The notes under the pieces are model-generated. The model saw only the letters and a program-made list of their open reading frames with translations. It had not been told where the DNA came from and ran no database searches. Both the position numbers and the translations under genes were made by a program. Shown piece after piece: positions 1-37,137 of a stretch of 64,000 bases of DNA. Numbering within the stretch: position 1 is the first letter of the stretch; every line of letters begins with the position of its first letter. Origin of the DNA: Candidatus Latescibacterota bacterium (GTDB lineage Bacteria; Latescibacterota; UBA2968; UBA8231); the NCBI GenBank assembly GCA_965242865.1, contig CBDETK010000013.1, forward strand, positions 3,168,001 to 3,232,000, given 5' to 3'.

Positions 1-356
1 CCCATCCGATCTATCATTGCTTCTACGATGTGGAGAGTCTCCCCCGCGGGATGCGCGATATGCACTATGCAAACTATGCAACAGGAGCGGGAATGAGAAC
101 GCCGCCAACTCCGGACTATTTGGAGGGCATTGTCGTCGGGGATCAGTTGGTGGGCGTGTATTCGATGCGTGGCTACGCCGATTTCTGGGCGGGAATCGCC
201 GAGCAGGAAAAGGAAGTATTTGCTACGCTCAGTAATATTAGTCCGTTTCTGGCCAGTGCCGAGGAGCCGATGGTGTATAACTTGGGCGTCAATTTCTTGG
301 TGTATGCGCTGACACGCGAGGGGTCACTGACCCAACAATTAGTCGTTGCGGACTGA
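1..356 (+). CDS. DUF4159-like protein, 3' part (truncated by window edge), paralog 1
   Basis: HPIYHCFYDVESLPRG...YLEGI...LGVNFLVYALT, near-identical to the C-termini of ORFs at 20245, 24644 and 35833. Confidence 0.8.
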   Translation, partial: HPIYHCFYDVESLPRGMRDMHYANYATGAGMRTPPTPDYLEGIVVGDQLVGVYSMRGYADFWAGIAEQEKEVFATLSNISPFLASAEEPMVYNLGVNFLVYALTREGSLTQQLVVAD

Positions 357-389
357 GGGCTATCAGAACAAACTGTGTGGATCCTTTTT

Positions 390-563
390 CTCAACGGGCA
401 GCCGGTGCGCCGAGTGTGGGCGGGTTCGTTGGCAGCGGGCGAACACCGGCTGGCTTGGGATGGCCGGGACGCGCAGGGCCAACCCGTCGCCGCGGGCGTC
501 TATGTGTATCGGTTGCAGGTGGGCGACCAGACGCGCATCCGCAAGATGGTCAAAATCGAATAG
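390..563 (+). pseudogene. Orphan FlgD-Ig tail, remnant of a deleted peptide-FlgD gene
   Basis: The spacer ctatcagaacaaactgtgtggatccttttt, which precedes intact peptide genes at 21627 and 26041, runs directly into GQPVRRVWAGSLAAG...KMVKIE. Confidence 0.7.
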
Positions 564-572
564 GGTACGGAC

Positions 573-3065
573 ATGCTGGATAAATTGCGCCAACATATAG
601 CGACTGGCTTACAGAATCTGAGCGTCCGGCTGCAACGGGCCGGCACGATCAAGGGGCTGCCGCGCCACGAGTGCCCCGTCTTGATCTTTTTCCACGGCTA
701 CAGCTTGGCCCACACCATCCGGCCACTGGTCGTAGGACGAGCACTGCGAGCGTGCGGCTACCCCGTTGAGTTCGCGGGAGTGGGGCCTCACGCCGCTCGG
801 ATCGCCGCCGAAGGGTTTCAAGTGCATGAGGTAGAAACCATGCCGCAAAGCCGCATGGACGAGTACGTAGCCCGCAGCGACTACGCCTACTACAACGCAG
901 AGTGGATAGACCGCTGCGTACAAGCCGAACGCACCCTCCTCCGGCGGCTCTGCCCCGCCCTCGCGCTGGCCGACCTGCGGCCCACCTTGCCGCTTACCGC
1001 CTCTCTTGAAGGGGTGGATATAGCCCTGATAGAGGCAGCCTACAACCAACCGGACTACCCGTTTCCCATTCGCCTACCCACGTCCTTTTCCTTGGGCACC
1101 GAGCCATTCGACGAATACGCTCGCAACCACATCTCGACCTTCAAGCCACACCACACCCTCTACTTGGTGGCCGATGTGCCCCAGTTCCACCCACCGGGTG
1201 AACAGACCCCATCCCATTATTGCTATGTGGGGCCATTGATCGAATTCCCACCGCCCCGCCCTATCGCGGAACTGAGCGATTGGGACGATTCGTTGCCGCT
1301 GGTCTATTTCAACTGCGGCAGCACTGGGGGCCATCCCGGCTTTCTCGACGAGGTGCTGTGCCGCATGGCCCATAAACCCTACCGCGTCTTGGTGACCACC
1401 GCGGGCCGTTGGGCTGGACAGGCAGCGGCCCCCAATATCCGCGTCGCCGACTTCGTACCCGCAGCTTGGGTGTTGGCGCGGGCGGCCCTCTTCGTGGGTG
1501 TGGGCGGCATAGGCTCCATCTACCATGCCTTGCGCCAAGGCGTACCCGTGCTCGGCGCGCCCGAGCACTTGGACCAAGAGTACCACCTCAACCGAGTGCG
1601 CGACCTCGGCTTGGGGTCCAAGCTCAACTGGGACGAGTTTCTCCGGGTGAACCCCCTGTTGGAGGCCATCGACGATCTCTTGGCTCGTCGCGGCGAATTT
1701 GCCTCGCGTTGCCAAGCCTTTGCCGCCCACGTGGGGCAATGGGACGGAGGCGAGGCCGCAGCCGATGCAGTAGAAGCCTTTTTTGCGGACCAGCGTTCCG
1801 CCCACTCGATCGAGGCGGCCTACCAAATGCCCGAGCCCGAGTTTATCCACTACCTCAACCTGAGCACCCCGGCCAACCTCGGCGTCGCCGAGCTCCGCAC
1901 CTTGCTCCACCGCAACCTGAGTCGCGGTTTGCCGCATGTCCAACAGGGCGGTCAGATCGCCTTTGACCGGGCCGATTCTTGGAACTGGCTCTACGATCAC
2001 GAGCCTGCGTTCTTTGAAAGCGATTACCGCGCCCTCGAAGAGAAACGCCGCGATTTTTTCTCTCCTGCAAATGGCCACGTCGCGCAGCACCGAAATCGTC
2101 AACGCTACCGCCTCACCTATACCTATCGGCTCTACCCCGCGACCTTGCCGCCCGATGTAAGCACCCGGCTCTTTCTGCCCTATCCCATCCCTAGTCCTCA
2201 TCAAGAGGCTATTGAGTTGTGCGCCTGTGCGCCGGACGATCTGCGAACTTGCTTTGCGCCGCAGGCCGGTTTTTTCTACGGCTATCCCGTCCGGGTAAAG
2301 GAGGCCGCTGCAGCCGCGGTGGATTTTTCCTACACCTGTGAGTTGACCGTGCGGGGGCGCAACGGCGCAACGGCTCCGCTGTCGGCCAGCGAATCCCGCC
2401 GCTACAGCGCAATCGAGCCAACGTTGGCGCAAGAAGCGGTCGTCCAAAATTTCTTTGCCGCACTGGATTTGGACGAGGTGGAAGACCCGTTGGAAAAGGC
2501 GCGGCGCATCTACGACCGCTTGGCCACGGTCAAGCGCTTCAAAAAAACCAAAGAGCGATCGCAGGACTTGGCCTCTTGCATCCACGTGGTGTTGAACGAC
2601 AGCGGCGGCCATTGCATCACCCTGTCCAATGCCTTTATCGCCCTTTGTCGGTTACAAGGGGTCGCGGCGCGGGCGGTCACCGGCGCTCTAGCCGGCTACC
2701 CCGCTGGCGCGGGTCGTTTTGAGCTGGCGGCCTATAACGAAATTCTCTTTGGGCACACGTGGGCGGAGGTTTTCGCGCCGGGACGAGGTTGGGTGCCAGT
2801 GGAATTTCACGGTATTGTCATTGGCCCGCAGTCGGCCACTGAGGACAACGTCGCCGACGAGGCCCTGCGCCGTCATATCGCCGAAGTCGGCGGTCGCTAC
2901 GTCGATTTTTACTTTGGCCAGTTGGATTGCCACCGCGTGGTGTGTTCCAATTCAGTCAAGACCGTGCCGCAACTGTTGGCTTGGCGCGAGACCGCGTCCG
3001 GGCCGCAATCCCACGTGCCGGAGGGCGTACAATACGAGTGCCGGCTCGTCTGGGAGTGCATTTGA
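573..3065 (+). CDS. GT-B (GT1/MGT-like) glycosyltransferase fused to a transglutaminase-like domain
   Basis: N-terminus GYSLAH, YVGPL, VADFVP, GVGGIGS...GVP..G.PEHLDQEYH; C-terminus GHCITLSNAFIALCRLQGVAARAVTG...HTWAEVF...GWVPVE. Confidence 0.8.
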   Translation: MLDKLRQHIATGLQNLSVRLQRAGTIKGLPRHECPVLIFFHGYSLAHTIRPLVVGRALRACGYPVEFAGVGPHAARIAAEGFQVHEVETMPQSRMDEYVARSDYAYYNAEWIDRCVQAERTLLRRLCPALALADLRPTLPLTASLEGVDIALIEAAYNQPDYPFPIRLPTSFSLGTEPFDEYARNHISTFKPHHTLYLVADVPQFHPPGEQTPSHYCYVGPLIEFPPPRPIAELSDWDDSLPLVYFNCGSTGGHPGFLDEVLCRMAHKPYRVLVTTAGRWAGQAAAPNIRVADFVPAAWVLARAALFVGVGGIGSIYHALRQGVPVLGAPEHLDQEYHLNRVRDLGLGSKLNWDEFLRVNPLLEAIDDLLARRGEFASRCQAFAAHVGQWDGGEAAADAVEAFFADQRSAHSIEAAYQMPEPEFIHYLNLSTPANLGVAELRTLLHRNLSRGLPHVQQGGQIAFDRADSWNWLYDHEPAFFESDYRALEEKRRDFFSPANGHVAQHRNRQRYRLTYTYRLYPATLPPDVSTRLFLPYPIPSPHQEAIELCACAPDDLRTCFAPQAGFFYGYPVRVKEAAAAAVDFSYTCELTVRGRNGATAPLSASESRRYSAIEPTLAQEAVVQNFFAALDLDEVEDPLEKARRIYDRLATVKRFKKTKERSQDLASCIHVVLNDSGGHCITLSNAFIALCRLQGVAARAVTGALAGYPAGAGRFELAAYNEILFGHTWAEVFAPGRGWVPVEFHGIVIGPQSATEDNVADEALRRHIAEVGGRYVDFYFGQLDCHRVVCSNSVKTVPQLLAWRETASGPQSHVPEGVQYECRLVWECI

Positions 3066-3066
3066 G

Positions 3067-4131
3067 ATGGATATTTCCGTGGTCATTGCCACGCATAACC
3101 AGCAGGAACGGCTGCGGCTGGTATTGGCCGGATTGCGCGGCCAGACTGCGCCGGCTACGCGCTTTGAAGTGGTGGTGGTAGAAGATGGTTGTAGCGACAA
3201 AACGGCCGAGATGCTCGACGAAGTGGATCGTCAGATGGACTTAAAAATTGTTCGCCTGCGGCCCAACGAGGGACGTTGTATGGCGCGCAACCGGGGCGTA
3301 GAGGCCGCTGCCGGGGAATTTGTCGCCTTCTTGGACGGGGACGCCCTGCCGCATCCACAATGGCTCCAACGCCATGTCGAAGCACTAGAACAGGGCGGGC
3401 GGGAGTCTCTGTTGTGCGGTGCCGAATACAGTCTGCCCGATTTGGAGTACCTGCAAGACCCCCAACGGGGAACGCCGATGGAGGGCAAGACCCCGAGCGT
3501 AGTGCGCGAGTACCTCCGCGCCCATCAACAGGAGTTGATCCTGACCGAGGATATGGTCCTCAGAGCCTTTGACCGCGTCGAAGCGCGCGCCGTGCTCGGG
3601 GGGTATCCCTTTCCCGAACTCGAGATCATGCAGGAGCAGATCGCCGCGCTCTTTGTCCAGCATCCCGATTCCCCTATTGGTTGGATGGGCTTTTTCCCGC
3701 ACAACGGCGCGGTCGCTAAGGAGGCTTTTTTAGAGGTGGGTGGTTTTGATCCCGACATGGCCTTTAGCGAAGGGTGGGACTTGGCTTATCGGCTACAGCA
3801 GCGTGGGTGTCGGCCCCACTTTGTCCCCGAGGCCAAGACCTATCACCTCTATCACTACCACGACTTTTCTGACCCGCTCAAGGCGCACGAAGAAACGCTC
3901 GCCCCCCAACGGGCCATGCAGTACATGGAGCGGAAATACGGCGATCCCAAGTTGCTGCTATTCCACTTCTGGTACGCCAGTATCTGGCCGGATCCCCTCC
4001 TGCCCGAAGAGACGTTGCTAAGAGACTTGGTAGAATTTCACCATGCGTACGCGCACTGGCCCACTAGCCGACTGCGCGATCTGCGGATATTGTTAGACCA
4101 TCACCCGACATGGGCAAAACCGGCCGGCTAA
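3067..4131 (+). CDS. Glycosyltransferase family 2
   Basis: ISVVIATHN, VVVVEDGCSD, ARNRG, FLDGD, VGGFD; ATG at 3067 directly after the upstream stop. Confidence 0.88.
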   Translation: MDISVVIATHNQQERLRLVLAGLRGQTAPATRFEVVVVEDGCSDKTAEMLDEVDRQMDLKIVRLRPNEGRCMARNRGVEAAAGEFVAFLDGDALPHPQWLQRHVEALEQGGRESLLCGAEYSLPDLEYLQDPQRGTPMEGKTPSVVREYLRAHQQELILTEDMVLRAFDRVEARAVLGGYPFPELEIMQEQIAALFVQHPDSPIGWMGFFPHNGAVAKEAFLEVGGFDPDMAFSEGWDLAYRLQQRGCRPHFVPEAKTYHLYHYHDFSDPLKAHEETLAPQRAMQYMERKYGDPKLLLFHFWYASIWPDPLLPEETLLRDLVEFHHAYAHWPTSRLRDLRILLDHHPTWAKPAG

Positions 4132-4168
4132 CTTGAACGGGCGGAAGCCGCCTGTTTGGCCAAACCGT

Positions 4169-4234
4169 AAAAAGTCGTGCAAAACCTGTGTAAAAGTCGT
4201 GCAATCCGAACAACTTTTGCACGACTTTTGCACG
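4169..4234. promoter_or_regulatory. Putative activator-binding repeat array (AAAAGTCGTGC, direct and inverted)
   Basis: AAAAGTCGTGCAA (4192-4204) inverted to TTGCACGACTTTT (4217-4229), plus extra copies; about 130-200 bp upstream of a sigma-54 site; conserved at 17153. Confidence 0.6.
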
Positions 4235-4316
4235 GAAAATCGCCGATCAACTGGCGACGATGCCTTACGCCGGCCTCATAGAAAACTATTTTTAACTGTC
4301 CAAATCCTTGTTTTTC

Positions 4317-4347
4317 AATCCTTTAGGTAATCCTAAAGGATTTTTTT
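4317..4347 (+). terminator. Hairpin plus T-tract, overlapping an IHF-like site
   Basis: AATCCTTTAGG-TAAT-CCTAAAGGATT-TTTTT; TTTCAA-TCCT-TTA at 4313-4325 resembles WATCAA-N4-TTR. Confidence 0.55.
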
Positions 4348-4365
4348 GTCCCGGACCGGTCTCGT

Positions 4366-4381
4366 TGGCACGAAACTTGCA
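4366..4381 (+). promoter_or_regulatory. Sigma-54 -24/-12 promoter
   Basis: TGGCACGAAACTTGCA is a perfect TGGCAC-N5-TTGCA match. Confidence 0.88.
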
Positions 4382-4510
4382 ATAGTCATTACAAGACAAG
4401 TGAAGCTCATCTACCAGAAAGGAGGTGCATCCCGTGCTCGTAGGTTTTGCTCGTCAGCAACCGCACTGGTTTGCTGATCCTTTTTCCTATCACTCAAGGA
4501 GAATTGAGTT

Positions 4511-4846
4511 ATGAACTTTTTGACTTTGATCTTGCAGTCGGCGCTGATGGCTCCGCTGGTGGAGTTCGCCACGTCGACGAGCGGCCACGTTGAGCCGCGC
4601 GAGGGCTTGGCACTGGGCTGGCTGGGCAGCGTGGTGGCGGGGCTGGCGGTGGTATTCAGCACGGCCGAACGGACGCCGGCCGATTCCTGCTACGGAATAG
4701 CCGAAGACTCCCATGGATCGGTTTGTCTTCCCTACGCATGTGCGTTTGATCATGAAGGGCGGCCTAGGGGGTGGTACCAAGCAAACTACTATCACTCGTC
4801 GGTTACAGGCTGTCAACAAGACAGAGGATGGTCCTGCAATTGCTGA
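4511..4846 (+). CDS. Cys-rich secreted peptide 1 (constant leader, 6-Cys variable core)
   Basis: RBS AAGGAG; first gene after the sigma-54 promoter; leader nearly identical to that at 17496; hydrophobic stretch then TPA|DSC. Confidence 0.8.
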   Translation: MNFLTLILQSALMAPLVEFATSTSGHVEPREGLALGWLGSVVAGLAVVFSTAERTPADSCYGIAEDSHGSVCLPYACAFDHEGRPRGWYQANYYHSSVTGCQQDRGWSCNC

Positions 4847-4851
4847 GAGTA

Positions 4852-4893
4852 CAGCCGCTGTGGCACTTTAGGGCTTGAGTGCCACAGCGACTG
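4852..4893 (+). other. Stable stem-loop after the peptide gene
   Basis: GCTGTGGCACT...AGTGCCACAGC, no U-tract; homolog with compensatory changes at 17934. Confidence 0.65.
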
Positions 4894-4956: not shown

Positions 4957-7086
4957 ATGCGCGGCTTGCTCTTTGTTATTGGGCTATTGACCGCTCCGCT
5001 TGGAGCCTTCGCTCTAACGTGGGATTTTGACGAGGACACCACGTGGGGCTGGACCGCTCGGGAGAGCATCTTAGGAGATGACTTTGGAAGCTCCAGTACT
5101 ACGGTGTATAGCGAGGTAGCCGATGGCGTCTGGCGCATTGCGCCCGTGCCGAACTCTCAACGACCAGCCATCAATTTGCGTTCGCCGCCAATTGGGGAAG
5201 ATTCTGCCTTGTTTGACCGGGTCACCCTACGGCTGCGCATCATTCATGATCGCCACACTGAGGGACGAATCCAGATGGCGTGGTTCAATGCCGAGTATAG
5301 ACGCCTCAAAAAGGAATCGGGTTCATCCTTTATAACAGAATTGATTGGTCGTTTTTTTCTGGTACGTACACAACGTTATCCCACTGAATGGGAAGACATC
5401 ACTGTCGATCTGCGTACTTTGGCAGCAGCCCTAAAACGAGAAATCACTTGGCAGGATACTCTCTTCGACTTCCAGTTAGAACTGGATTTAAACGAATTCT
5501 CCCAAGGTCCGGTCGATCATCCAGTCTTTTTAGAAGTGGACTGGATTCAACTGACGGGGACTGAGGAGTTGCTATTGGGAGAATTACAGCCTCGGGCGGT
5601 CTTCTTGGAGGTGGGATTGCTTGGCAGGTTGTTCGCTGAACTCGGCTTTTTTCCCCTTGGCGTGGGTATTGAGGATATACGCTCAGGTTATGGGCTTCCG
5701 CAAAGTGCGTTGGGCGATGTGGACGGCGATGGGGATGTGGACTTGGTAACGGACTGGACGCGCTCCGACGCCGGCCAGACCTCGGGCTGGATGGTAGCTT
5801 CTAACGATGGTTTGGGGCACTTGGTCCCATTCAGGGAGTACACATCCCCTCTTGGACTTATAAGCCAACTCCAAGGGGGTGATTTTAACGGGGATGGACT
5901 CCTCGATCTGGCCTTTGCTGACGGTCGGAACCTCGAACTGTGGCTCAACAAAGGCGAAGACCGCTTTGAAGTTACTCTACAACTGTCCGATGTCTTATTC
6001 AATGGCCTAGCCGATGGCGATGGAGACGGGGACGTGGACCTGTTGAGTGTGGAAGTAGGCGATTCGCAGTACAACGCGATCCTATGGCTCAATGACGGCA
6101 ATGCCGGGTTTGCCCTCAGCGATCGGTTTGCCCCTAACAGCGAGGAGAAGCTCTTTCCTTTTGCGCTCGCTGGACACTCGTTGGGCGAGGCCGTGCGCCT
6201 GTTATGGGTTCGGCCCTGTTACCAACCTCAAGGTACTTGGCAGCTAACCCAGCCGTGGGCGGCTAGCGCGGAACCGATGCTGTTTCTTGACCCAGTGGTC
6301 AACCCCTGTAACCTGCACTTGCTCGCCGATTTGGATGACGATGGAACAGCAGAATTAATCGGGGCTGCTGAACGCGATTTACAATTCGATCCTTTTTACA
6401 CTGGCACAACCTATCACGGTTTGGCCCTGTGGCGTCTGGACGAGTCGGGCGAGTTGGTACGCCACGTTCTGCTTGATTCAGAGGTGCTTTTACCGCATCG
6501 CGCCATTGCCCACGACCTCAACGGCGATGGCCTGTTGGACTTGGCTGTGGTTGATGGCAACTTGGCGACCGGACCGGCGCTGGTGGTGCTGACCGGCCAG
6601 CGCGATGGCTTGCCCGTCGTCGAAGGCCGCTATCGGCTGCCGGGCACGGGCGGTCCCATCCTCGCCGGCGACCTCAACGGCGATGGGGCCGCCGATCTGG
6701 TCGTTCTCGGACGAAGCATAGAAGGCGGTCCGGGCGGAGCTTTCGTCTTTCTCAACCAGAGTGCGCCAGCCACCGCCATCGCCGCCGAGACGCTGACTAC
6801 GCCCACGGCCTTTGCCCTCGGGGCCAACTATCCCAACCCATTCAACCCAGCCACGACCATCCCCTTGGCACTGCCGGCCGACGCTGGCGAGGTGGCCTTA
6901 ACTATCTACAATGTCTTGGGGCAGCCGGTGCGCCGCGTATGGGCAGGTTCGTTGGCCGCCGGCGAGCATCGACTGGCTTGGGATGGCCGGGACGCGCAGG
7001 GGCAGTCCGTCGCCGCGGGGGTCTATTGGTATCGGTTGCAGGTGGGCGATCAGACGCACACCCGCAAGATGATCAAAATCGAATAG
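4957..7086 (+). CDS. Secreted FG-GAP/VCBS-repeat protein with FlgD-Ig tail, paralog A
   Basis: Signal peptide AFA|LTWDFD; multiple GDxDGDGxxDL repeats; GANYPNPFNPATTI...WDGRD...GVYWYRL. Confidence 0.88.
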   Translation: MRGLLFVIGLLTAPLGAFALTWDFDEDTTWGWTARESILGDDFGSSSTTVYSEVADGVWRIAPVPNSQRPAINLRSPPIGEDSALFDRVTLRLRIIHDRHTEGRIQMAWFNAEYRRLKKESGSSFITELIGRFFLVRTQRYPTEWEDITVDLRTLAAALKREITWQDTLFDFQLELDLNEFSQGPVDHPVFLEVDWIQLTGTEELLLGELQPRAVFLEVGLLGRLFAELGFFPLGVGIEDIRSGYGLPQSALGDVDGDGDVDLVTDWTRSDAGQTSGWMVASNDGLGHLVPFREYTSPLGLISQLQGGDFNGDGLLDLAFADGRNLELWLNKGEDRFEVTLQLSDVLFNGLADGDGDGDVDLLSVEVGDSQYNAILWLNDGNAGFALSDRFAPNSEEKLFPFALAGHSLGEAVRLLWVRPCYQPQGTWQLTQPWAASAEPMLFLDPVVNPCNLHLLADLDDDGTAELIGAAERDLQFDPFYTGTTYHGLALWRLDESGELVRHVLLDSEVLLPHRAIAHDLNGDGLLDLAVVDGNLATGPALVVLTGQRDGLPVVEGRYRLPGTGGPILAGDLNGDGAADLVVLGRSIEGGPGGAFVFLNQSAPATAIAAETLTTPTAFALGANYPNPFNPATTIPLALPADAGEVALTIYNVLGQPVRRVWAGSLAAGEHRLAWDGRDAQGQSVAAGVYWYRLQVGDQTHTRKMIKIE

Positions 7087-13560: not shown

Positions 13561-13642
13561 ACGACCGATTTGACTGCGCGATCTACAGACCTTGTTGGAC
13601 CATCACCCGACATGGGCAAAACCGAACGGAGCGCAAATCATA

Positions 13643-16160: not shown

Positions 16161-16241
16161 ATGGGTAGCCCTGCCAAAAAGAAAGGGGCATAAGATGATG
16201 AGTTGTGCCGTGGTACATAACTGAGGAGGGGACTGCGAGGC

Positions 16242-17348: not shown

Positions 17349-17364
17349 TGGCACGAAACTTGCA
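17349..17364 (+). promoter_or_regulatory. Sigma-54 -24/-12 promoter, copy 2
   Basis: TGGCACGAAACTTGCA. Confidence 0.88.
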
Positions 17365-17825: not shown

Positions 17826-17933
17826 CCCGGCCGCTCAGTGCTCCGTCGCTGGATTCCCGGCTGTATCTATCAGCGTTTTACATGCGGCTAGGTGAGGTCC
17901 TGTGACGTTGCCCGGCCGTTGCAGAAACGACGC

Positions 17934-17970
17934 GCCCCTGTGGTACTTTCGGGCCGAGTACCACAGGGGC
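17934..17970 (+). other. Stem-loop after peptide 2
   Basis: GCCCCTGTGGTACT...AGTACCACAGGGGC. Confidence 0.65.
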
Positions 17971-29115: not shown

Positions 29116-31239
29116 ATGCGCGGCTTGCTTTTTGCGATTGGCTTATTGACGGCTCCGCTTGGAGCCTTGGCCCTAACGTGGGATTTTGACGAGGGCACCA
29201 CGTGGGGCTGGACCGCCCAAGAGGCGGGTTTCTACAGCACTAGGGGAACGGCTGATGCCACCACGGTGTACAGCGAAGTCGAAGACGGCGTCTGGCGTAT
29301 TGCGCCCGTGCCGGGGGCTCAAAAACCGACCCTTCAGTTGCGCTCACCGCCGATTGGCGAAGACTCGGCCCTGTTCGACTATGTCACCCTCCGGCTCCGC
29401 ATCATCCACCATACCCCGACCGCGGGAACTCTCTTGATGCGATGGTTCAATTCCGAGTACACAAGACTCCTCGGTCTGTACCAACACGAAGACGAAGACG
29501 AAGACGAAGTGGTGCCGTTTTCAACGAGCCGTTTTCAACTCTATCCCACTCAATGGGAAGACATCACCATAGATATACGCGCCTTAGAAGCGAACCCAGA
29601 AATCGCGATCGTCTGGCAGGACACCCTTTTTGAATTCCATTTTGACTTGGACCTACACACCGCCGCACAGGGACCGGCCGATCATCCGGCCTTTGTCGAA
29701 GTAGATTGGATTCAACTGACCGGGGCTGAAGAGTTACTGCTAGGGGAATTGTCGCCCCGGGCCATCGTCGTGGAGGCGGGCGTACCCGGGGCGTTGTTCG
29801 CCGAACCGGCCTTTTTCCCCCTCGTTGAGGGCATCACAGGCAAAACAGTGGGCCTTGGACAATCGGCGGGTACTTTGGGGGATGTGGATGGCGATGGCGA
29901 TGTGGATCTAGTAGCGGTTTGGAATCGCTTGACCGCCACCGGAAGCGACCATGGTTGGCTCATAGCCTCCAACGATGGCTTCGGCGGCTTTGCTCCCACC
30001 CAAGAGGAGGCCGCAAGTGCCTACCTCAGTCTCCAAGGAAGCGACTTCGATGGGGATGGGCTGTTAGACTTGGTCTTTGATGGAGAACGGATAGTCGAAC
30101 TGTGGCACAACCGGGGCGAGGATGGCTTTGAGAGCACGTTGCGGCTGTCCGGCGTTGAGTTCATCGGCTTAGCCGATGGCGAGGGCGATGGCGATGTGGA
30201 CCTGTTGGTTCTTGAGCTTGACGACGAATCGCCCCACGTGGTGTTGTGGCTCAACGATGGCGACGCCGGATTTGTCCGCAGCGATCGGTTTGATCTCGAC
30301 AGCGAAGAGGAGCTCCTTCCGTACCCGACCTCCGAGCAAGTGCCGGGCGAGGCCGTTCATCTGTTGTGGAACCGCCCCTGCTACCTGCCTCAAGGGCCGT
30401 GGCAACGGACCCGGCCGTGGGCGACCAGCGAGGAGCCGCCGCTGTTTTTCGAGACCGAGGTCAACCCCTGTACTCTACAACTGCTCGCCGATGTGGATGG
30501 CGATGGAGAAGTGGATTTACTCAGCGTCTCTGTGATAAGAGAGTTCTTCTTCACCGCCACCACCTATCACGGTTTGGACTTGTGGCGGTTGGACGCTTCG
30601 GGCGGGGTGTCTCGCCACCCCCTGCTCGGCTCGCAGGTACAGGTGTCGCATCGCGCCATTGCCCACGACCTCAACGGCGATGGCCTGTTGGACTTGGCCT
30701 TGGTTGATGGCAACTTAGCCACCGGACCGGCGCTGGTGGTGCTGGTCGGCCAGCGCGATGGGCTGCCCGTCGTCGAAGGCCGCTACCGGCTGCCGGGCAC
30801 GGGCGGCCAAGTGCTCCCCGGCGACGTAAACGGCGATGGGGCCGCCGATCTGGTCGTTCTCGGACGAAGCGTGGCAGGCGGTCCGGGCGGAGCCTTCGTC
30901 TTCCTCAACCAGCATACGCCAGCCACCGCCATCGCCGCCGAGACCACGACCACCCCCTCAGCCTTTGTCCTCGGGGCCAACTACCCCAACCCGTTCAATC
31001 CGGCCACGACCATCCCCTTGGCACTGCCCGCCGACGCCAGCGAGGTGGCCTTAACTATCTACAATGTCTTGGGGCAGCCGGTGCGCCGCGTATGGGCAGG
31101 TTCGTTGGCAGCGGGCGCACACCGGCTGGCTTGGGATGGCCGGGACGCGCAGGGGCAGCCCGTCGCCGCGGGGGTCTATTGGTATCGGTTGCAGGTGGAC
31201 GATCAGACGCACACCCGCAAGATGATCAAAATCGAATAG
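29116..31239 (+). CDS. FG-GAP/FlgD protein, paralog H
   Basis: Start reassigned to ATG 29116 after GGAGG. Confidence 0.88.
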   Translation: MRGLLFAIGLLTAPLGALALTWDFDEGTTWGWTAQEAGFYSTRGTADATTVYSEVEDGVWRIAPVPGAQKPTLQLRSPPIGEDSALFDYVTLRLRIIHHTPTAGTLLMRWFNSEYTRLLGLYQHEDEDEDEVVPFSTSRFQLYPTQWEDITIDIRALEANPEIAIVWQDTLFEFHFDLDLHTAAQGPADHPAFVEVDWIQLTGAEELLLGELSPRAIVVEAGVPGALFAEPAFFPLVEGITGKTVGLGQSAGTLGDVDGDGDVDLVAVWNRLTATGSDHGWLIASNDGFGGFAPTQEEAASAYLSLQGSDFDGDGLLDLVFDGERIVELWHNRGEDGFESTLRLSGVEFIGLADGEGDGDVDLLVLELDDESPHVVLWLNDGDAGFVRSDRFDLDSEEELLPYPTSEQVPGEAVHLLWNRPCYLPQGPWQRTRPWATSEEPPLFFETEVNPCTLQLLADVDGDGEVDLLSVSVIREFFFTATTYHGLDLWRLDASGGVSRHPLLGSQVQVSHRAIAHDLNGDGLLDLALVDGNLATGPALVVLVGQRDGLPVVEGRYRLPGTGGQVLPGDVNGDGAADLVVLGRSVAGGPGGAFVFLNQHTPATAIAAETTTTPSAFVLGANYPNPFNPATTIPLALPADASEVALTIYNVLGQPVRRVWAGSLAAGAHRLAWDGRDAQGQPVAAGVYWYRLQVDDQTHTRKMIKIE

Positions 31240-31268: not shown

Positions 31269-33428
31269 ATGCGCGGCTTGTTTTTTGCGATTGGCTTATT
31301 GACCGCTCCGGTTGGAGCCTTGGCCTTAACGTGGGATTTTGACGAGGGCACCACGTGGGGCTGGACCGCCCAAGAGAGCTACTTAGGCGATGACGACAGA
31401 GATCCCACCACGGTGTACAGCGAAGTCGAAGACGGCGTCTGGCGCATTGCGCCGGTGCCGGACGGACAACGACCGGCCATTACGTTGTACTCGCCGCCGA
31501 TTGGGGAAGACTCGGCCCTATTCGACTATGTCACCCTCCGGCTCCGCATCCTCCATGATAGCCCCACCGGGGGGAATCTCTTTATGGACTGGTTCAATGC
31601 CGAGTACAAAAGACTCCGGGAGGAAAGAAGACTCAAACAGGCAGCGGGCCAACGCATACCAAGCTACGGGTCGAAGTTTTCGATGGGCCGTTATCAAATC
31701 TATCCCACCCAATGGGAAGACATCACGATAGATATACGCGCCTTAGAAGCCGCTGCGGAAGCGAATCCAGAAGTCGCGATCGTCTGGCAGGACACCCTTT
31801 TTGAGTTTTATTTTGACTTGGCTCTAAACACCGCCGCGCAGGGGCCGGCCGATCATCCGTCCTTTGTCGAAGTAGATTGGATTCAACTGACCGGGGTCGA
31901 AGAGTTGCTCTTGGGGGAATTGCCGCCCCGGAGGATCGCCGCGCCGGCTGGGTCGCCCGGCGCGTTGTTCGCCGCGCCCAACTTCTCCCCCCTCGGCGAA
32001 GGCGTCCAAGACTCCCGACTCTCGGAAAATGCTTTGGGGGATGTGGATGGCGATGGGGATGTGGATATGGTGGTGGCCTATGTGCGCGGCTCTACGAGAG
32101 TAGAAACGGGCTGGATGGTGGCGTCCAACGACGGGCGGGGTGGTTTTGTCCCCACCCAAGAGGTCGCTCTCTTCAAGGGCAAGGGCTCTTACCCCTACCC
32201 CCACTTTGAGGGCGTCGATTTTGATGGGGATGGACTCCTCGATCTGGTCGTTTCAGGGAGGGATTCCGTTGACCTGTTGTACAATCAGGGCAAGGACGGT
32301 TTTGAAACGGCCCTACAACTGTTTGTACCTGATTTCCTTTTCGTTGGCTTGGCCGATGGTGATGGTGATGGCGATGTGGACCTATTGGGAGTGGAAAGCG
32401 GCGACACTCGGCCTAACGTGACGATGTGGTTCAACGATGGCGACGCCGGGTTTGTCCGCCGTGATCGGTTCAGCCTCGACACCGAGGAGGACCTTTTTCC
32501 TCGGATACTCCCAGGGCAGCCGCCGGGCGAGGCCGTGCGCCTGTTGTGGACCCGACCCTGCTACCTGCCCCAAGGAGCTTTGCAACTGACCCAACCATGG
32601 GCGGCTAGCGAGGAGCCGCCGCTGTTTTTCGAGACCACGGTCGACCCCTGTGACCAACTGCACTTGCTCGCTGATCTGGATGGCGATGGAGCGGTAGAAT
32701 TCGTCGGACCGCCCGATCAGGATCTACAATTCGACTCTCGCGACATCACCACCTACCACGGTTTGGCCCTGTGGCGTCTGGACGAGTCGGGCGAGTTGGT
32801 ACGCCACGTTCTGCTTGATTCAGAGGTGCTTTTACCGCATCGCGCCATTGCCCACGACCTGACCGGCGATGGCCTGTTGGACTTGGCCGTGGTCGATGGC
32901 AATTTAGCTACCGGACCGGCGCTGGTGGTGCTGGTCGGCCAGCGCGATGGGCTGCCCGTCGTCGAAGGCCGCTACCGGCTGCCGGGCACGGGCGGCCAAG
33001 TGCTCCCCGGCGATGTAAACGGCGATGGGGCAACCGATCTGGTGGTGCTGGGGCGGAATATGGCAGGCGGTCCCGTCGGAGCCTTCGTCTTCCTCAACCA
33101 GCATACGCCAGCCACCGCGGTCACTATTGAGACCGCGACTGTCCCCTCAGCCTTTGTCCTCGGCGCCAACTATCCCAACCCGTTCAATCCGGCCACGACC
33201 ATCCCCCTTACCCTGCCCGCCAGTGCCGAGGCGGTGGACGTAACCATCTACAATGTCTTGGGGCAGCCCGTGCGCCGAGTATGGAACGGTTCGTTGGCCG
33301 CCGGCGCACACCGGCTAGCTTGGGATGGCCGGGACGCCGCGGGCAAGCCGGTCGCCGCGGGGGTCTATTGGTATCGGTTGCAGGTGGACGATCAGACGCA
33401 CACCCGCAAGATGGTCAAAATCGAATAG
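31269..33428 (+). CDS. FG-GAP/FlgD protein, paralog I
   Basis: Start reassigned to ATG 31269 after GGAGG. Confidence 0.88.
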   Translation: MRGLFFAIGLLTAPVGALALTWDFDEGTTWGWTAQESYLGDDDRDPTTVYSEVEDGVWRIAPVPDGQRPAITLYSPPIGEDSALFDYVTLRLRILHDSPTGGNLFMDWFNAEYKRLREERRLKQAAGQRIPSYGSKFSMGRYQIYPTQWEDITIDIRALEAAAEANPEVAIVWQDTLFEFYFDLALNTAAQGPADHPSFVEVDWIQLTGVEELLLGELPPRRIAAPAGSPGALFAAPNFSPLGEGVQDSRLSENALGDVDGDGDVDMVVAYVRGSTRVETGWMVASNDGRGGFVPTQEVALFKGKGSYPYPHFEGVDFDGDGLLDLVVSGRDSVDLLYNQGKDGFETALQLFVPDFLFVGLADGDGDGDVDLLGVESGDTRPNVTMWFNDGDAGFVRRDRFSLDTEEDLFPRILPGQPPGEAVRLLWTRPCYLPQGALQLTQPWAASEEPPLFFETTVDPCDQLHLLADLDGDGAVEFVGPPDQDLQFDSRDITTYHGLALWRLDESGELVRHVLLDSEVLLPHRAIAHDLTGDGLLDLAVVDGNLATGPALVVLVGQRDGLPVVEGRYRLPGTGGQVLPGDVNGDGATDLVVLGRNMAGGPVGAFVFLNQHTPATAVTIETATVPSAFVLGANYPNPFNPATTIPLTLPASAEAVDVTIYNVLGQPVRRVWNGSLAAGAHRLAWDGRDAAGKPVAAGVYWYRLQVDDQTHTRKMVKIE

Positions 33429-33450: not shown

Positions 33451-35565
33451 ATGCGCGGCTTGCTTTTTGCGATTGGATTGTTGACCGCTCCGGTTGGAGC
33501 CTTGGCCTTAACGTGGGATTTCGACGAGGACACCACGTGGGGCTGGACCGCCCAAGAGGCGGGTTCCTATAGCACTAGGGGAACGGAGGATGTCACTACG
33601 GTACACAGCGAAGTGGAAGATGGCGTTTGGCGTCTTGCGCCCGTGCCGGAGGCTCGAAAACCCACCCTTCAGTTGCGCTCGCCGCCGATTGAGGAAGACT
33701 CCGCCCTGTTCGACTCCGTTACCCTCCGGTTACGCATCATCCACCATACCCCCACTGAGGGCAATCTCGTGATGCGATGGTTCAATGCTGAGTACACAAG
33801 ACGCCTCGGGCTGAACCGACGCGAAGGAGATACTCAGTTTCGGATGAGCCGTTATCAACTCTATCCCACTCAATGGGAAGCCATCACCGTAGATATACGC
33901 GCCTTAGAAGCCGCAGCCGTAGCCGACCCAGCCGCCGCGATCGTCTGGCAGGACACCCTTTTTGAATTCCATTTTGACTTGGATCTAAACACCGGCGCAC
34001 AGGGGCCGGCCGATCATCCGTCCTTTGTCGAAGTAGATTGGATTCAGCTAACGGGGGTTGAAGAGTTACTGCTGGGGGAGTTGCCGCCCCGGGCCATCGT
34101 CGTGGAGGCGGGCGTACCCGGCGCGTTGTTCGGCGAACCGGCCTTTTTTCCCCTCGTTGAGGGCATCACAGGCAAAACAGTGATCCTTGGAGAATCGGCG
34201 GGTACTTTGGGGGATGTGGATGGCGATGGCGATGTGGACCTCGTGGCGATGTGGAACCGCCGCACCGCCACCGGAAGTGCCCATGGCTGGGTAATAGCCG
34301 CCAACGATGGCTTCGGCGGCTTTGTCCCCACTCAAGAGGAGACCACAAGCCCAGACCTCGGTCTCCAAGGGAGCGACTTCGATGGGGATGGGCTGTTCGA
34401 CTTGGTCTTTAGTGGCGACCGGATCGTCGAACTGTGGCATAACGAAGGGGAAGATGGGTTTGCGAGCACGTTGCAGCTATCCGGCGTCAAGTTACTTGTC
34501 CTCGCCGATGGCGAGGGCGATGGCGATGTGGACCTGTTGGTTCATGAGCCTGACGACTTATCGTCCCACGTGATTTTGTGGATCAACGACGGCGACGCCG
34601 GCTTCGTCCGCCGGGAGCGGTTCGATCTCGACAGCGAAGAGAGACTCTATCCGTACCCGCGCTCCAAGCAACCGCCGGGCGAGGCCGTGCGCCTGTTGTG
34701 GAACCGCCCCTGCTACTTACCCGTAGGGCCTTGGCGCCTGACCCGGCCGTGGGCGGCTAGTGCGGAGGAGCCGCTGTTTTTTGAGACCGCGCTCAACCCC
34801 TGTACGCTGGACCTAATCGCTGATCTGGATGGCGATGGGGCGGTGGAGTTCGTCGGTTCCCTTGAACTGCGCCGGTTCCTCGGCCTCATCTACCACGGCT
34901 TGGCCGTGTGGCGGGTGGACGCTTCGGGTGGGGTGTCCCGCCATCCCCTGCTCGGTCCGCAGATGATTGCGTCGCATCGCTCCATTGCCCACGACCTCAA
35001 CGGCGATGGCCTGTTGGACTTGGCTGTGGTCGATGGCAACTTGGCGACTGGACCGGCGTTAGTGGTGCTGACCGGCCAGCGCGATGGGCTGCCCGTCGTC
35101 GAAGGCCGCTATCGGCTGCCGGGCACGGGCGGTCAAGTCCTCCCAGGCGACGTAAACGGCGATGGGGCTGTCGATCTGGTGGTGCTGGGGCGGAATATGG
35201 AAGGCGGTCCGGGCGGAGCCTTCGTCTTTCTAAACCAGCATACGCCAGCCACCACGGTCACTACTGAGACCGCGACTGTCCCCTCAGCCTTTGTCCTCGG
35301 GGCCAACTATCCCAACCCGTTCAATCCAGCCACGACCATCCCCTTGGTGCTGCCTGCCCAAGCCGGCGAGGTGGCCTTAACCATCTACAACGTCTTGGGG
35401 CAGCCGGTGCGCCACGTATGGGCGGGTTCGTTGGCCGCCGGCGAACACCGACTGGCTTGGGATGGCCGGGACGCGCAGGGACAGCCGGTCGCCGCGGGGG
35501 TCTATTGGTATCGGTTGCAGGTGGGCGATCAGACGCACACCCGCAAGATGATCAAAATCGAATAG
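33451..35565 (+). CDS. FG-GAP/FlgD protein, paralog J
   Basis: Start reassigned to MRGLL. Confidence 0.88.
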   Translation: MRGLLFAIGLLTAPVGALALTWDFDEDTTWGWTAQEAGSYSTRGTEDVTTVHSEVEDGVWRLAPVPEARKPTLQLRSPPIEEDSALFDSVTLRLRIIHHTPTEGNLVMRWFNAEYTRRLGLNRREGDTQFRMSRYQLYPTQWEAITVDIRALEAAAVADPAAAIVWQDTLFEFHFDLDLNTGAQGPADHPSFVEVDWIQLTGVEELLLGELPPRAIVVEAGVPGALFGEPAFFPLVEGITGKTVILGESAGTLGDVDGDGDVDLVAMWNRRTATGSAHGWVIAANDGFGGFVPTQEETTSPDLGLQGSDFDGDGLFDLVFSGDRIVELWHNEGEDGFASTLQLSGVKLLVLADGEGDGDVDLLVHEPDDLSSHVILWINDGDAGFVRRERFDLDSEERLYPYPRSKQPPGEAVRLLWNRPCYLPVGPWRLTRPWAASAEEPLFFETALNPCTLDLIADLDGDGAVEFVGSLELRRFLGLIYHGLAVWRVDASGGVSRHPLLGPQMIASHRSIAHDLNGDGLLDLAVVDGNLATGPALVVLTGQRDGLPVVEGRYRLPGTGGQVLPGDVNGDGAVDLVVLGRNMEGGPGGAFVFLNQHTPATTVTTETATVPSAFVLGANYPNPFNPATTIPLVLPAQAGEVALTIYNVLGQPVRHVWAGSLAAGEHRLAWDGRDAQGQPVAAGVYWYRLQVGDQTHTRKMIKIE

Positions 35566-35571
35566 ACGCAC

Positions 35572-35800
35572 GATTTGACTGCGCGATCTACAGACCTTGT
35601 ATTGCTGCATAGAGCACTGGCCATAGACGAACCGCTCGGTCGGCTCGAAGGACTGGGCCTTGAATACGACACCTTGGGACAAATCTATCTCCAGACGGAG
35701 CGGCTCGACTAGACTTGGTCGTGCTGGAAAATGCCGTGCGCGGGGGGGGGCAGTGGCATATACATCCTGTCCAACCAGACAAAAACAGACGACTGAATGG
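35572..35800 (+). pseudogene. Deletion scar made of pieces of the 13.57-16.16 kb region
   Basis: Segments match ~13567-13594, ~14087-14119 (TPR) and ~16075-16164 (end of paralog K). Confidence 0.75.
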
Positions 35801-35832
35801 ATAGCCTTGCGAAAAGAAAGGGGAATAAGACG

Positions 35833-37137
35833 ATGAGACGACCGTGGAAAGTACCGCTCCGCAAAAACAGACCCCTGCAAAGCTGCTTGGCGGTGTCGCT
35901 GGCCTTGCATCTGCTGGTGATCTTCGGCATCACGCACCGCGAGCAGGTTGCTCAGTTTCCCGTCCTACAGCCGATCATGGTGGAGTTCACCAAACGCCCA
36001 CCGCCGCAGCGCACCCTCACCCGCCGGCAACGGCCCCGCCAACGGCCCTTAGTGCGCCGCCCCGCCCTGCAAGCCGCCCCGGTCGCCGCGGTGCGCCCGG
36101 CTCCCTCGGCGACGCGCCCCCTGCCGATGTTCAAGACGTCGGCACTTAGGCTACCGATGGCAGCATTGCCGGATCGACTGGTGCTACCCGTGCCGGATTT
36201 CCCCGCTCGGCACATTGGTCCGCAAACGCAGGCTGGGGCATTGGAAGGGACGCGACAGGGGGCCGACGAGATCGACTTGGCCTTAGAACTGATGGATGTG
36301 CAGGCCATGGACACCGGCCAGCACCGGGCGATGGTGGTCGTCGATCCAAAAGACCGGCGTCAACTCAAGGGATTCCTCTACATGTCCAATGTATATAGCC
36401 CTTCCATTGAACGGGCTGAGCGAGAAACATCACGCCGACTTTGGGAAACGCGCCAAATGCAAGAAAACCGGATGCTGCAAGGGTTGGCCGACAAAATGGT
36501 CGCCAGTACGCAGGTTCACGCCGAAGTGCTCGACGCGGTGGCACTGGACGACCCCCAACTATTGCAGGTGCCCTTCGTCCTCCTGACGGCAAGTGGGTCC
36601 TTTGAGTTCACCGAGGCGGAGACAGCTAATCTCGGAGCGTACCTGACTTCGGGCGGCTTTCTGTTTGCGGAGATTGTCAGCGAATTGCGCCCCAACTACA
36701 GCGACACCGAGTTGGACATTCCCGCGGTGCGCTCCCTCATTCGCGCCAGCTTGCAGGCGGCGGGTTATCAAGAGTGGAAGGACTGGCAATTTAGACGCCT
36801 AGAGCTAACCCATCCGATCTATCATTGCTTCTACGATGTGGAGAGTCTCCCCCGCGGGATGCGCGACATGCACTATGCAATAGGAGTGCCGCTCACGCCG
36901 GACTATTTGGAGGGCATCGTCGTCGGGGATCAGTTGGTGGGCGTGTATTCGATGCGCGGATACGCGGATTTCTGGTCGGGGCTGGCCGAGCAGGAATCGG
37001 AGACTTTTGATGTGATCAACAGTCCGTTTTTGGCCAGTGCCGAGGAGCCGCTGGTGTATAACTTGGGCGTCAATTTCTTGGTGTATGCGTTGACGCGAGA
37101 AGGCTCATTGGCCCAACAATTAGTCGATGCAGACTAA
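35833..37137 (+). CDS. DUF4159-like protein, paralog 4
   Basis: MRRPWK start, homologous to 20245 and 24644. Confidence 0.8.
   Translation: MRRPWKVPLRKNRPLQSCLAVSLALHLLVIFGITHREQVAQFPVLQPIMVEFTKRPPPQRTLTRRQRPRQRPLVRRPALQAAPVAAVRPAPSATRPLPMFKTSALRLPMAALPDRLVLPVPDFPARHIGPQTQAGALEGTRQGADEIDLALELMDVQAMDTGQHRAMVVVDPKDRRQLKGFLYMSNVYSPSIERAERETSRRLWETRQMQENRMLQGLADKMVASTQVHAEVLDAVALDDPQLLQVPFVLLTASGSFEFTEAETANLGAYLTSGGFLFAEIVSELRPNYSDTELDIPAVRSLIRASLQAAGYQEWKDWQFRRLELTHPIYHCFYDVESLPRGMRDMHYAIGVPLTPDYLEGIVVGDQLVGVYSMRGYADFWSGLAEQESETFDVINSPFLASAEEPLVYNLGVNFLVYALTREGSLAQQLVDAD

Follow-up and report, generated by a model that had tools for sequence, protein, structure and literature searches.

A 64,000-nucleotide stretch of a Candidatus Latescibacterota genome (assembly GCA_965242865.1; G000:C13:3168001-3232000, hereafter the window), set on a 5.6-Mb contig, carries an array in which genes for small Cys-rich peptides, for large FG-GAP proteins (hereafter FG) and for DUF4159 proteins are interleaved. 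The interpretation that we favour, tentatively and as falling just short of probable, is that the array belongs to a lineage-specific, sigma-54-controlled secretion system, which matures the peptides and exports them as passengers to make two-part extracytoplasmic complexes. The original prediction, made from the letters of the window alone, had counted 11 FG-GAP, 4 DUF4159-like and 4 peptide genes, all co-oriented, in positions 1-37137; these counts hold, and every long open reading frame (ORF) of interest in that interval is on the + strand. Its picture of near-constant scaffolds with hypervariable segments suits the FG proteins (about 10 loop segments) and the peptides (an invariant leader and a variable core), and applies only mildly to DUF4159. 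A head module, a type IX secretion context and peptide-free FG arrays, all described below, lie beyond its account.

The peptides consist of a leader and a core. Among 27 leader-bearing ORFs gathered from this genome and related loci, a leader of about 45 residues is nearly invariant, and the core is fast-evolving and holds 4-10 Cys. Across 14 subfamily A peptides from at least seven genomes, 37 alignment columns are invariant, and apart from four core Cys and the initiator Met all of them fall at leader positions 12-49. Between genomes (83 pairs), the proportion of nonsynonymous differences (pN) in the leader is 0.051 against a synonymous proportion (pS) of 0.414, with 0.43 against 0.61 in the core. 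Because leader pN is so far below pS, the leader is conserved as protein, beyond the effect of DNA homogenisation. The DNA of peptide genes P0, P1 and P2 is 95-100% identical over a stretch that opens some 110 nt ahead of the start codon and closes at the first Cys codon, and 30-60% identical beyond it. The leader begins with a polar N-terminal segment ending in an invariant Ser-Gly, continues as a hydrophobic stretch and finishes with an Ala-x-Ala-type site, at which variability begins. Four Cys are invariant in the core, to which added pairs give 6, 8 or 10 depending on the subfamily.

Two of the window peptides, P3 and P4, end in the C-terminal sorting domain found in FG proteins (Pfam FlgD_ig). 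P4 has two tandem 4-Cys modules, and P3 a short repeated Ser/Thr/Pro-rich insert before its last Cys pair. The makeup of P3 and P4 therefore suggests that the Cys module is a unit open to duplication and to fusion with a sorting domain. P0, P1 and two peptides of a second array (array B, below) matched no family in Pfam or NCBIfam, and Pfam returned for P2 only an X8 domain (E 0.04), taken as a chance Cys pattern. An FG gene lies 23-212 nt downstream of each of 20 paired leader-bearing peptide ORFs, although the pairing criterion required this and the figure is not an independent count.

Array A, as the array of the window is called here, begins 19 kb upstream of it with, in order, an activator, an A24 protease, an FMN_bind-like protein, two thioredoxin-like proteins, P0, five FG genes and the DUF4159 gene D0. 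The head module thus sits directly upstream of the first peptide gene, P0 being the fifth peptide gene of array A. The Peptidase_A24 protein (379 residues) scores 27.1-30.7 bits against a cut-off of 26.5, with both Asp motifs visible. The FMN-binding-like protein is membrane-anchored, its FMN_bind-like end scoring below cut-offs, and the next two genes encode membrane-anchored AhpC/TSA-Redoxin proteins, both with a CxxC motif and nearest to ResA, MauD and StoA, below NCBIfam cut-offs. These four proteins are single-copy in the genome, all in array A, and the A24 gene provides the only A24 match in the whole genome.

The link between peptide and protease extends to other members of the family. 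Among 76 family genomes, 26 have both a peptide and an A24 match, two a peptide only, two A24 only and 46 neither; the counts carry no statistical test, related genomes not being independent. In the 26 genomes with both, peptide and A24 genes are within 10 kb of each other in 17, on different contigs in five and far apart in four. On the basis of this co-occurrence and of the conserved leader, the peptide is proposed as a putative A24 substrate.

The FG ORFs of about 630-720 residues encode a short signal peptide, a Leu-Thr-Trp-Asp-Phe-Asp motif and FG-GAP repeats, and 10 of the 11 in the window share a common C-terminal domain. Pfam was run on two of the 11 (FG1 and FG5), the other nine being assigned by alignment and tblastn. 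FG1 matches FG-GAP_3 (67.4 bits, cut-off 26.9) and FlgD_ig (52 bits, cut-off 27), with Por_Secre_tail at 22.4 bits, below its cut-off of 27. Fifteen aligned paralogs are 62-91% identical in pairwise comparison. The FG1 tail is a type IX secretion system (T9SS) type A sorting domain by NCBIfam (TIGR04183, 34.8 bits against a cut-off of 23), and the genome encodes the T9SS machinery proteins SprA (481.9 bits) and PorU (624.3 bits against a cut-off of 420), both over their cut-offs, together with about 160 FG-type sorting domains detected by tblastn. FG, P3 and P4 thus resemble known T9SS type A cargo (TIGR04183/Por_Secre_tail, FlgD_ig-like) in their C-terminal domain and in the presence of SprA and PorU, but form an undescribed cargo family, arrayed with partner peptides and a dedicated maturation module.

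A model of the FG fold, built from a 132-member alignment (pLDDT 88, pTM 0.83), predicts a beta-sandwich at about residues 20-215, a propeller at about 230-600 and an Ig-like tail. Foldseek searches with the whole model returned galactose oxidase, which has the same three-domain order, CRTAC1, integrin alphaV, a PVL-type lectin and sialidases bearing carbohydrate-binding modules (CBMs). Integrin alphaV, CRTAC1 and the PVL-type lectin were matched with E values of 1e-9 to 1e-7, in agreement with the FG-GAP propeller indicated by Pfam; a sequence profile searched against the PDB gave weak matches to FlgD, CRTAC1, PVL lectins and polysaccharide lyase family 11 (PL11) enzymes. Modelled alone, the N domain (pLDDT 89.9) matches the folds of CBM86/4/28/11/30/22 and a hyaluronan-binding module at about 10% identity (E 1.5e-5 to 7e-4, query TM 0.35-0.49). 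Residues 1-230 of FG1 gave no Pfam or NCBIfam match, and all Atlas leads were below 0.9. The modelled N domain is thus CBM-like by fold and outside every described CBM or Pfam sequence family, carbohydrate binding being only putative. A profile search among 1.84 billion representatives found 218 relatives of this domain at E <=0.001. There is also a second architecture, in proteins of 920-990 residues (P0047, P0091, P0104, P0109, P0115 and others) with the N domain at about 300-550.

Variability in FG is concentrated in about 10 loops, which differ by indels as well as substitutions. The indels do not suggest a diversity-generating retroelement, and no search aimed at one was made. The only nearly invariant residues of the propeller across 132 members are the Asp and Gly of the Ca loops and core Trp, with no conserved His, Arg, Lys or Tyr. 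Since the loops vary and only these residues are nearly invariant, FG is better seen as a binding scaffold than as an enzyme. Ligand binding by integrin alpha, CRTAC1 and PVL-type propellers takes place on the face where the FG variable loops fall. FG resembles these propellers (integrin alpha head, CRTAC1/ASPIC, PVL-type fungal lectins) in its FG-GAP_3 match, its near-invariant Ca-loop motifs and its fold matches to 9etn, integrin alphaV and 4tqm, and differs from them in being bacterial and T9SS-secreted, with a CBM-like lid domain and a predicted ligand that is an endogenous mini-protein. In eight close FG pairs (Nei-Gojobori), the ratio of nonsynonymous to synonymous rates (omega) ranges over 0.44-1.67 in variable columns, without a robust value above 1, against 0.25-0.5 for the scaffold and 0.14-0.35 for the tail; the variable columns were picked by low conservation, a circularity that inflates dN, and the loop alignment is uncertain. 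Lower pS at both ends of the FG genes (0.21-0.30 against 0.4-0.66) suggests gene conversion there.

A direct, computational pointer to a physical partnership is a complex model of FG1 (residues 20-612) with the P1 core (residues 58-111), the one pair modelled, which scored ipSAE 0.86, 0.85 and 0.85 in three runs. Three controls (two unrelated partners and one unrelated large chain) scored 0.00. The partner was modelled at pLDDT 80-83, and at least 58% of contacts recur between runs. The mark applied to ipSAE is reached by 58 of 80 solved complexes and by two of 110 mismatched pairs, a calibration that is rough here, custom alignments having been used. In the model the P1 core would be almost enveloped, with about 100 contacts, in a cleft between the N domain and the top face of the propeller. 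Of the 46 FG1 residues at this predicted interface, 39 belong to the least conserved fifth of the protein, against 80 of the 547 others (odds ratio 32; 38 of 46 when 132 sequences are used).

Expression of the array appears to depend on sigma-54. Perfect TGGCAC-N5-TTGCA elements occur at 4366-4381 and 17349-17364, and with up to one mismatch the window holds 15 matches where 2.23 are expected, a number reached in none of 100 shuffles. Each perfect promoter is followed by a peptide gene, a hairpin and an FG gene, just as the original prediction had it (z -4.46 and -2.71 for the hairpins, both of which are without a U-run). Upstream of both promoters are 12-mer inverted repeats, as possible binding sites for the activator, together with a terminator-like hairpin that has a T-run; the 360 bp from the repeats into the leader are 92% identical between the P1 and P2 units (compared with 4158-4515). 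The A24 gene is preceded by a one-mismatch sigma-54 element and inverted repeat sites. Among the 27 leader-bearing peptide ORFs, nine, including five of the seven in array B, have a perfect -24/-12 element 145-208 nt upstream; the remaining peptide ORFs follow thioredoxin-like or DUF4159 genes and are presumably co-transcribed with them.

The regulator itself is encoded by the head module. The array A activator (1070 residues) matches Sigma54_activat (208 bits), HTH_8, five Reg_prop repeats (Reg_prop 121 bits) and Y_Y_Y in Pfam, and the activators of the arrays have 5-7 Reg_prop repeats each, plus Y_Y_Y. Hydropathy reveals neither a signal peptide nor a membrane helix, and the protein is probably cytoplasmic. 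A dedicated activator gene is present in both large arrays (A and B), and the genome encodes rpoN (201 bits). Promoter elements, a Sigma54_activat activator and rpoN are thus all found, as a sigma-54 regulon predicts, and the sigma-54 control proposed in the original prediction gains from the activators of both arrays, from rpoN and from the perfect promoters of nine of the 27 peptide genes. Four more sigma-54-type elements, two of them perfect, lie on the - strand further along the window, at 43785-43800, 51369-51384, 54496-54511 and 61803-61818. That at 43785 is upstream of a - strand ORF of 185 residues, ahead of a MacB/FtsX-type permease gene; those at 51369 and 61803 are upstream of - strand ORFs (at 61803, an S8-DUF1611 gene), and that at 54496 is inside ORF 54345-54722. 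An NtrC-type response regulator is encoded at 62021-63412, and the genome makes heavy use of sigma-54.

Related arrays occur elsewhere on the same contig (C13). Array B, at C13:367-411 kb, comprises 13 FG genes at about 35% identity and seven peptides of a second subfamily, together with a second activator, DUF4159, GT2 and GT1 glycosyltransferases, a transglutaminase and TPR. Array C (489-497.5 kb) has three FG genes and DUF4159, and at 178-185 kb two distant DUF4159 genes have a lone FG gene nearby. The genome holds 33 N-domain matches in total, and at least 12 peptide genes.

In other genomes the three families again travel together. All of 59 related FG loci are in Candidatus Latescibacterota/Latescibacteria records except three, which are titled Gemmatimonadetes/-ota. 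Within 10 kb of these loci are found peptide genes (31 of 59), DUF4159 (26), thioredoxin-like proteins (23), activators (22), FMN-binding-like proteins (17), GT1-transglutaminase (15), A24 (13) and GT2 (12). That the families form one system, as first proposed, is borne out by the peptide and DUF4159 counts, which point to co-inheritance in other metagenome-assembled genomes. Among the 76 family genomes, 25 have both FG and peptide matches, three a peptide only, 11 FG only and 37 neither. Sampling across the phylum placed the N domain in 10 of 40 further genomes of this family and in none of 80 genomes from 13 other families. As far as these searches reach, only one family of Candidatus Latescibacterota has the system. 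The sequencing runs that contain this DNA include several labelled sponge metagenome, one of which carries unique segments of the array with 0-24 differences.

DUF4159 proteins are a conserved component of the arrays rather than the hypervariable family first supposed, being 77-96% identical across arrays whose FG proteins share about 35%. Their N-terminal 185 residues, with a membrane helix and a Pro/Arg-rich stretch, are near-invariant, and variation is limited to 4-5 short patches. Pfam was run on one of the four window proteins (D1, 68.9 against 25.9 bits), the others being assigned by alignment at 83-96% identity. In all 22 paralogs and orthologs the membrane helix shows, by eye, an invariant Ser-x3-His, and a Pro-rich stretch, likewise conserved, comes next (20245-20800 in D1). 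The N terminus thereby looks TonB-like, a resemblance that serves only as a lead, Pfam and NCBIfam having returned nothing at E up to 10. To our knowledge, DUF4159 (PF13709) is a family without known function. It is named, in the parts of the literature searched, only in the Pfam database paper, as a listing.

The glycosyltransferase, transglutaminase and TPR genes that the original prediction described as embedded in the array are present according to Pfam (573-3065, 3067-4131, 16205-17137 and, with TPR scores below cut-off, 13867-14208). The GT1-transglutaminase/GT2 module has four copies in the genome; two of these lie outside the arrays, so the module is separable from them. The two outlying GT1-transglutaminase and GT2 (and TPR) modules, at C13:1583-5136 and C13:2011058-2015961, are 33-50% identical to the window copy.

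The features of the array within the window are as follows.

3-356, +: 3' part of DUF4159 gene D0, its 5' end cut by the window edge (whole gene G000:C13:3167025-3168356); tblastn 92% identity to D1, ORF list
366-563, +: stranded T9SS sorting-domain remnant, 62-residue ORF; tblastn 80% over residues 25-89 of the FG1 C-terminal query
573-3065, +: fusion of GT1 (macrolide-GT-like) and transglutaminase core; Pfam Transglut_core 59.7 bits, EryCIII-like_C 35.2 bits, NCBIfam MGT below cut-off
3067-4131, +: GT2 glycosyltransferase; Pfam Glycos_transf_2 87.5 bits, NCBIfam EpsD/MftF below cut-offs
4166-4235, no strand: 12-mer inverted and direct repeats, candidate activator site, from the sequence; a related copy lies upstream of the A24 gene
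4317-4349, +: terminator-like hairpin of 11 pairs with T-run, directly before the promoter
4366-4381, +: perfect sigma-54 -24/-12 element
4511-4846, +: peptide P1, 57-residue leader and 54-residue core with 6 Cys; AAGGAG ribosome-binding site upstream, no Pfam family
4852-4893, +: stem-loop between P1 and FG1, without U-run; 110-nt spacer -42.7 kcal/mol, z -4.46
4957-7086, +: FG1, with signal peptide, CBM-like N domain, FG-GAP propeller and T9SS sorting domain; Pfam, TIGR04183, models, fold searches
7117-9267, +: FG2; tblastn, alignment
9297-11420, +: FG3; tblastn, alignment
11443-13560, +: FG4; tblastn, alignment
13572-13624, +: 53-bp copy (90.6%) of the GT2 3' end
13867-14208, +: TPR ORF; TPR_12 24.5 bits against a cut-off of 30.1 (E 3e-5), all Pfam TPR models below cut-off
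14274-16160, +: FG5, divergent paralog (32-37% identity) without sorting domain; Pfam FG-GAP_3 66.3 bits only, alignment
16205-17137, +: TPR protein; Pfam TPR_12 120.4 bits
17300-17332, +: terminator-like hairpin with T-run, copy of 4317-4349
17349-17364, +: perfect sigma-54 -24/-12 element
17496-17825, +: peptide P2, P1-type leader and 4-Cys core
17931-17975, +: stem-loop between P2 and FG6, without U-run; z -2.71
18021-20144, +: FG6; tblastn, alignment
20245-21567, +: DUF4159 protein D1, N-terminal membrane helix, Pro/Arg-rich stretch and DUF4159 domain; Pfam 68.9 bits, hydropathy, alignment
21627-22325, +: peptide P3, leader, one 4-Cys module and T9SS sorting domain; Pfam FlgD_ig 53.2 bits
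22411-24543, +: FG7; tblastn, alignment
24644-25981, +: DUF4159 protein D2; tblastn, alignment
26041-26913, +: peptide P4, leader, two 4-Cys modules and T9SS sorting domain; Pfam FlgD_ig 51.4 bits
26936-29086, +: FG8; tblastn, alignment
29116-31239, +: FG9; tblastn, alignment
31269-33428, +: FG10; tblastn, alignment
33451-35565, +: FG11; tblastn, alignment
35797-37137, +: DUF4159 protein D3, true start likely the second Met at 35833; ORF list, alignment

Gene fragments at 366-563 and 13572-13624, and the 5' fragments of DUF4159 that tblastn located in arrays B and C (C13:379871-379960 and C13:493473-493553), are rearrangement scars of past recombination within the arrays. The paralogs are too diverged for the array to be a duplication artefact of assembly. 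Its unique segments were found with 0-24 differences in Logan contigs of runs from three studies; these contigs break or join at the array repeats, and thus support the unique segments and are silent on gene order. The 5.6-Mb length of the contig suggests a long-read assembly. Directly after the array, at 37882-39087, comes a GH99-like/WbsX-like protein with a signal-like N terminus, and then a PhyH-type dioxygenase. A stretch of lower G+C content (0.50-0.54) at 54000-62000 includes an ABC exporter (55115-56887) and a Peptidase_S8-DUF1611 fusion (59816-61759), possibly another peptide-processing cluster.

How might the parts of such a secretion system work together? The cytoplasmic activator, in which a propeller sensor is joined to a sigma-54 AAA+ domain, would switch on operons that start with a small precursor gene. 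The precursor would enter the inner membrane via its nearly invariant leader. This leader would be the target of the dedicated A24-type GxGD protease, with a cut probably just behind the invariant Gly25, and a second point of release for the core may be the Ala-x-Ala site on the leader/core boundary. Oxidative folding of the core, with its 4-10 Cys, could then fall to the two membrane-anchored CxxC thioredoxin-like proteins, whose redox partner would be the FMN-binding-like protein. According to the complex model, the adjacently encoded FG would hold the folded core in the cleft that its CBM-like N domain forms with the propeller top face. The FG protein would exit through the T9SS by means of its sorting domain, taking with it as passengers those peptides that lack such a domain, and P3 and P4 would use their own. 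The repertoire of 33 FG and at least 12 peptide genes would have arisen by tandem duplication, by conversion at gene ends and by rapid divergence of cleft loops and peptide cores. Most likely it serves the bacterium, in its sponge habitat, as a binding coat that is variable and either displayed on the surface or secreted. A bolder version, which we regard as speculative and rather doubtful, is a repertoire of matched "key and clasp" pairs in which fast-evolving, disulfide-rich mini-proteins matured by their own protease and thioredoxins ride as T9SS passengers in hypervariable clefts, giving a sponge symbiont a combinatorial, switchable coat for host recognition or for evading phagocytosis.

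Several observations weigh against a passenger-export system of this kind. Its A24 cut site, redox folding and passenger export are steps that we infer, and it leaves DUF4159 and the GT module, two of whose four copies are outside the arrays, without a role. No peptide match was found in 11 of 36 FG-positive genomes, and FG and peptide matches are very unequal in some genomes (10 and 0 in G142, 24 and 1 in G146, 26 and 1 in G121, 20 and 2 in G139). At four loci with 5-7 FG genes each (L022, L023, L025 and L035) the nearest 10 kb hold no peptide, although the peptide profile, derived from a single subfamily, could overlook others. In this genome 33 FG genes face about 12 peptide genes, nearly three for each. 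A loop omega of about 1 fits neutral drift as well as it fits diversifying selection, propeller top-face loops are variable in general, and the complex model may favour a concave cleft. The original prediction had spoken of a secreted ligand and binder repertoire; the P1 core modelled in the hypervariable cleft of FG1 lends this computational support, whereas co-variation of peptide core and adjacent FG interface was, over the two subfamilies, not above shared history in partial Mantel tests (n=13, partial r -0.07, p 0.67 for subfamily A; n=7, partial r 0.41, p 0.043 for subfamily B).

The main rival, which we consider unlikely, holds that peptide and FG are co-regulated but separate products: FG proteins would be free-standing T9SS-secreted adhesins or lectins that bind external glycans or host matrix, the peptides would act independently, and the modelled complex would be a false positive. 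The N domain does fold like type B CBMs (CBM86, CBM4, CBM28, CBM11, CBM30 and the hyaluronan-binding module, E 1.5e-5 to 1e-4). Also in favour of separate products are the likeness of the propeller to PVL-type lectins, integrin alpha and CRTAC1, the existence of FG arrays without peptides, and P3 and P4, which need no carrier, having their own sorting domain. Sensors of the Reg_prop/Y_Y_Y type are, moreover, known from the glycan-sensing regulators of Bacteroides. The activator shares its 5-7 Reg_prop repeats and Y_Y_Y with those hybrid two-component sensors, but by hydropathy it has no signal peptide or membrane helix, and it is fused to a sigma-54 AAA+ domain and HTH_8 instead of kinase, receiver and AraC domains. 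Separate products are harder to reconcile with a complex score of 0.85 against 0.00 in controls, with a modelled interface that coincides with the variable surface, and with the adjacency of peptide and FG genes in both subfamilies and across genera. A glycan-sensing activator would also suit a locus akin to those for polysaccharide utilisation, with FG proteins as secreted lyases or other enzymes carrying a CBM. Weak profile matches to the PL11 lyases YesW/YesX (E 2e-5 to 9e-5), a fold match to the rhamnose-glucuronate lyase 7esk and the CBM-like N domain all lean that way, yet the would-be catalytic face is the most variable part of the protein, the propeller has no conserved His, Arg, Lys or Tyr in 132 members, and the peptides, A24 and thioredoxin-like proteins are left unexplained; we regard this explanation as very improbable.

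Two other proposals start from the peptides. If they were prepilin-like, A24 would remove a short N-terminal segment and the helix would serve as an anchor or fibre core, displaying a variable Cys-rich head. The arrays do resemble type IV/Flp prepilin systems in having a dedicated GxGD protease (27.1-30.7 bits) that adjoins and is tightly linked to the small proteins (four of the 76 genomes discordant), and in the plan of the latter: a conserved N terminus made of a short polar segment, an invariant Gly and a hydrophobic stretch or helix, then a C terminus that is variable and bears Cys. Pilin operons, too, are typically under sigma-54 control and have a hairpin behind a strongly expressed first gene. 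But position +5 after the invariant Gly25 is Arg in both subfamilies where prepilins have Glu, none of the peptides matched Flp_Fap in a search of the genome, an N-methyl motif or another pilin model, an Ala-x-Ala signal-peptidase-type site follows the helix exactly at the leader/core boundary, and the T9SS sorting domain of P3 and P4 needs soluble periplasmic cargo. The only T2SSE ATPase and the only secretin of the genome are both on the 41-kb contig C1, off the chromosome and away from the arrays. They lie at G000:C1:26570-36472, on a contig with a higher G+C content (0.637); the bin contamination being 6.84%, C1 may be foreign to the organism. Membership of the peptides in the Flp/type IV pilins was rejected on the hidden Markov model searches, the Arg at +5 and the lack of a chromosomal ATPase or secretin, and the looser prepilin-like arrangement seems improbable. 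Still less probable, in our view, is a polymorphic toxin or bacteriocin with its immunity, in which antimicrobial or host-directed peptides would be neutralised by FG or DUF4159. Glycocin clusters such as that of sublancin combine a leader and a disulfide-rich core with thiol-disulfide oxidoreductases and GT2. The peptides here likewise pair an invariant leader under purifying selection with a fast-evolving core on a Cys framework, as do ribosomally synthesised and post-translationally modified peptides (RiPPs) and glycocins in bacteria and conotoxin-like superfamilies in animals, and they have thiol-disulfide oxidoreductases and GT2 nearby, about one DUF4159 gene per peptide unit in array A and a predicted tight binding to FG. 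In RiPP and glycocin terms, however, the leader is unusual in holding a membrane or signal segment, the GT module is separable and also occurs apart from the arrays, and among the array genes scanned there is no leader-dependent or cluster-specific modifying enzyme, ABC/C39 exporter, lysis gene or known toxin domain, the GT1 and GT2 matches being below curated cut-offs. FG proteins are themselves secreted, and DUF4159 is conserved (77-96%) while the peptides vary.

A full-text search of the literature, covering main texts, returned no description of a peptide-FG array system. For sponge Latescibacterota, the passages of PMC12993501 that were available list ankyrin, LRR, NHL, SEL1, TPR, WD40, FN3 and PQQ proteins and not FG-GAP; in those of PMC13747020, an FG-GAP-containing protein is among the recombinant eukaryotic-like proteins used. 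Each domain of the arrays is known, and it is their combination that seems undescribed: an A24 and thioredoxin maturation line, leader-core mini-proteins, and arrayed T9SS cargo predicted to clasp them.

If the passenger-export reading is true, these arrays would represent a new kind of secreted two-part system, in which a maturation line for disulfide-rich mini-proteins is coupled to a large family of T9SS cargo, and the export of passengers through the T9SS would itself be new. An A24 protease would also gain a role and a class of substrates, in a chromosome where neither a pilus ATPase nor a secretin was detected. The N domain and the peptide are two protein families without a Pfam model, and the peptide cores make up a natural library of small disulfide-rich scaffolds with predicted binders. 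For the organism, peptide and FG are candidates for how an uncultured, sponge-associated lineage varies its surface.

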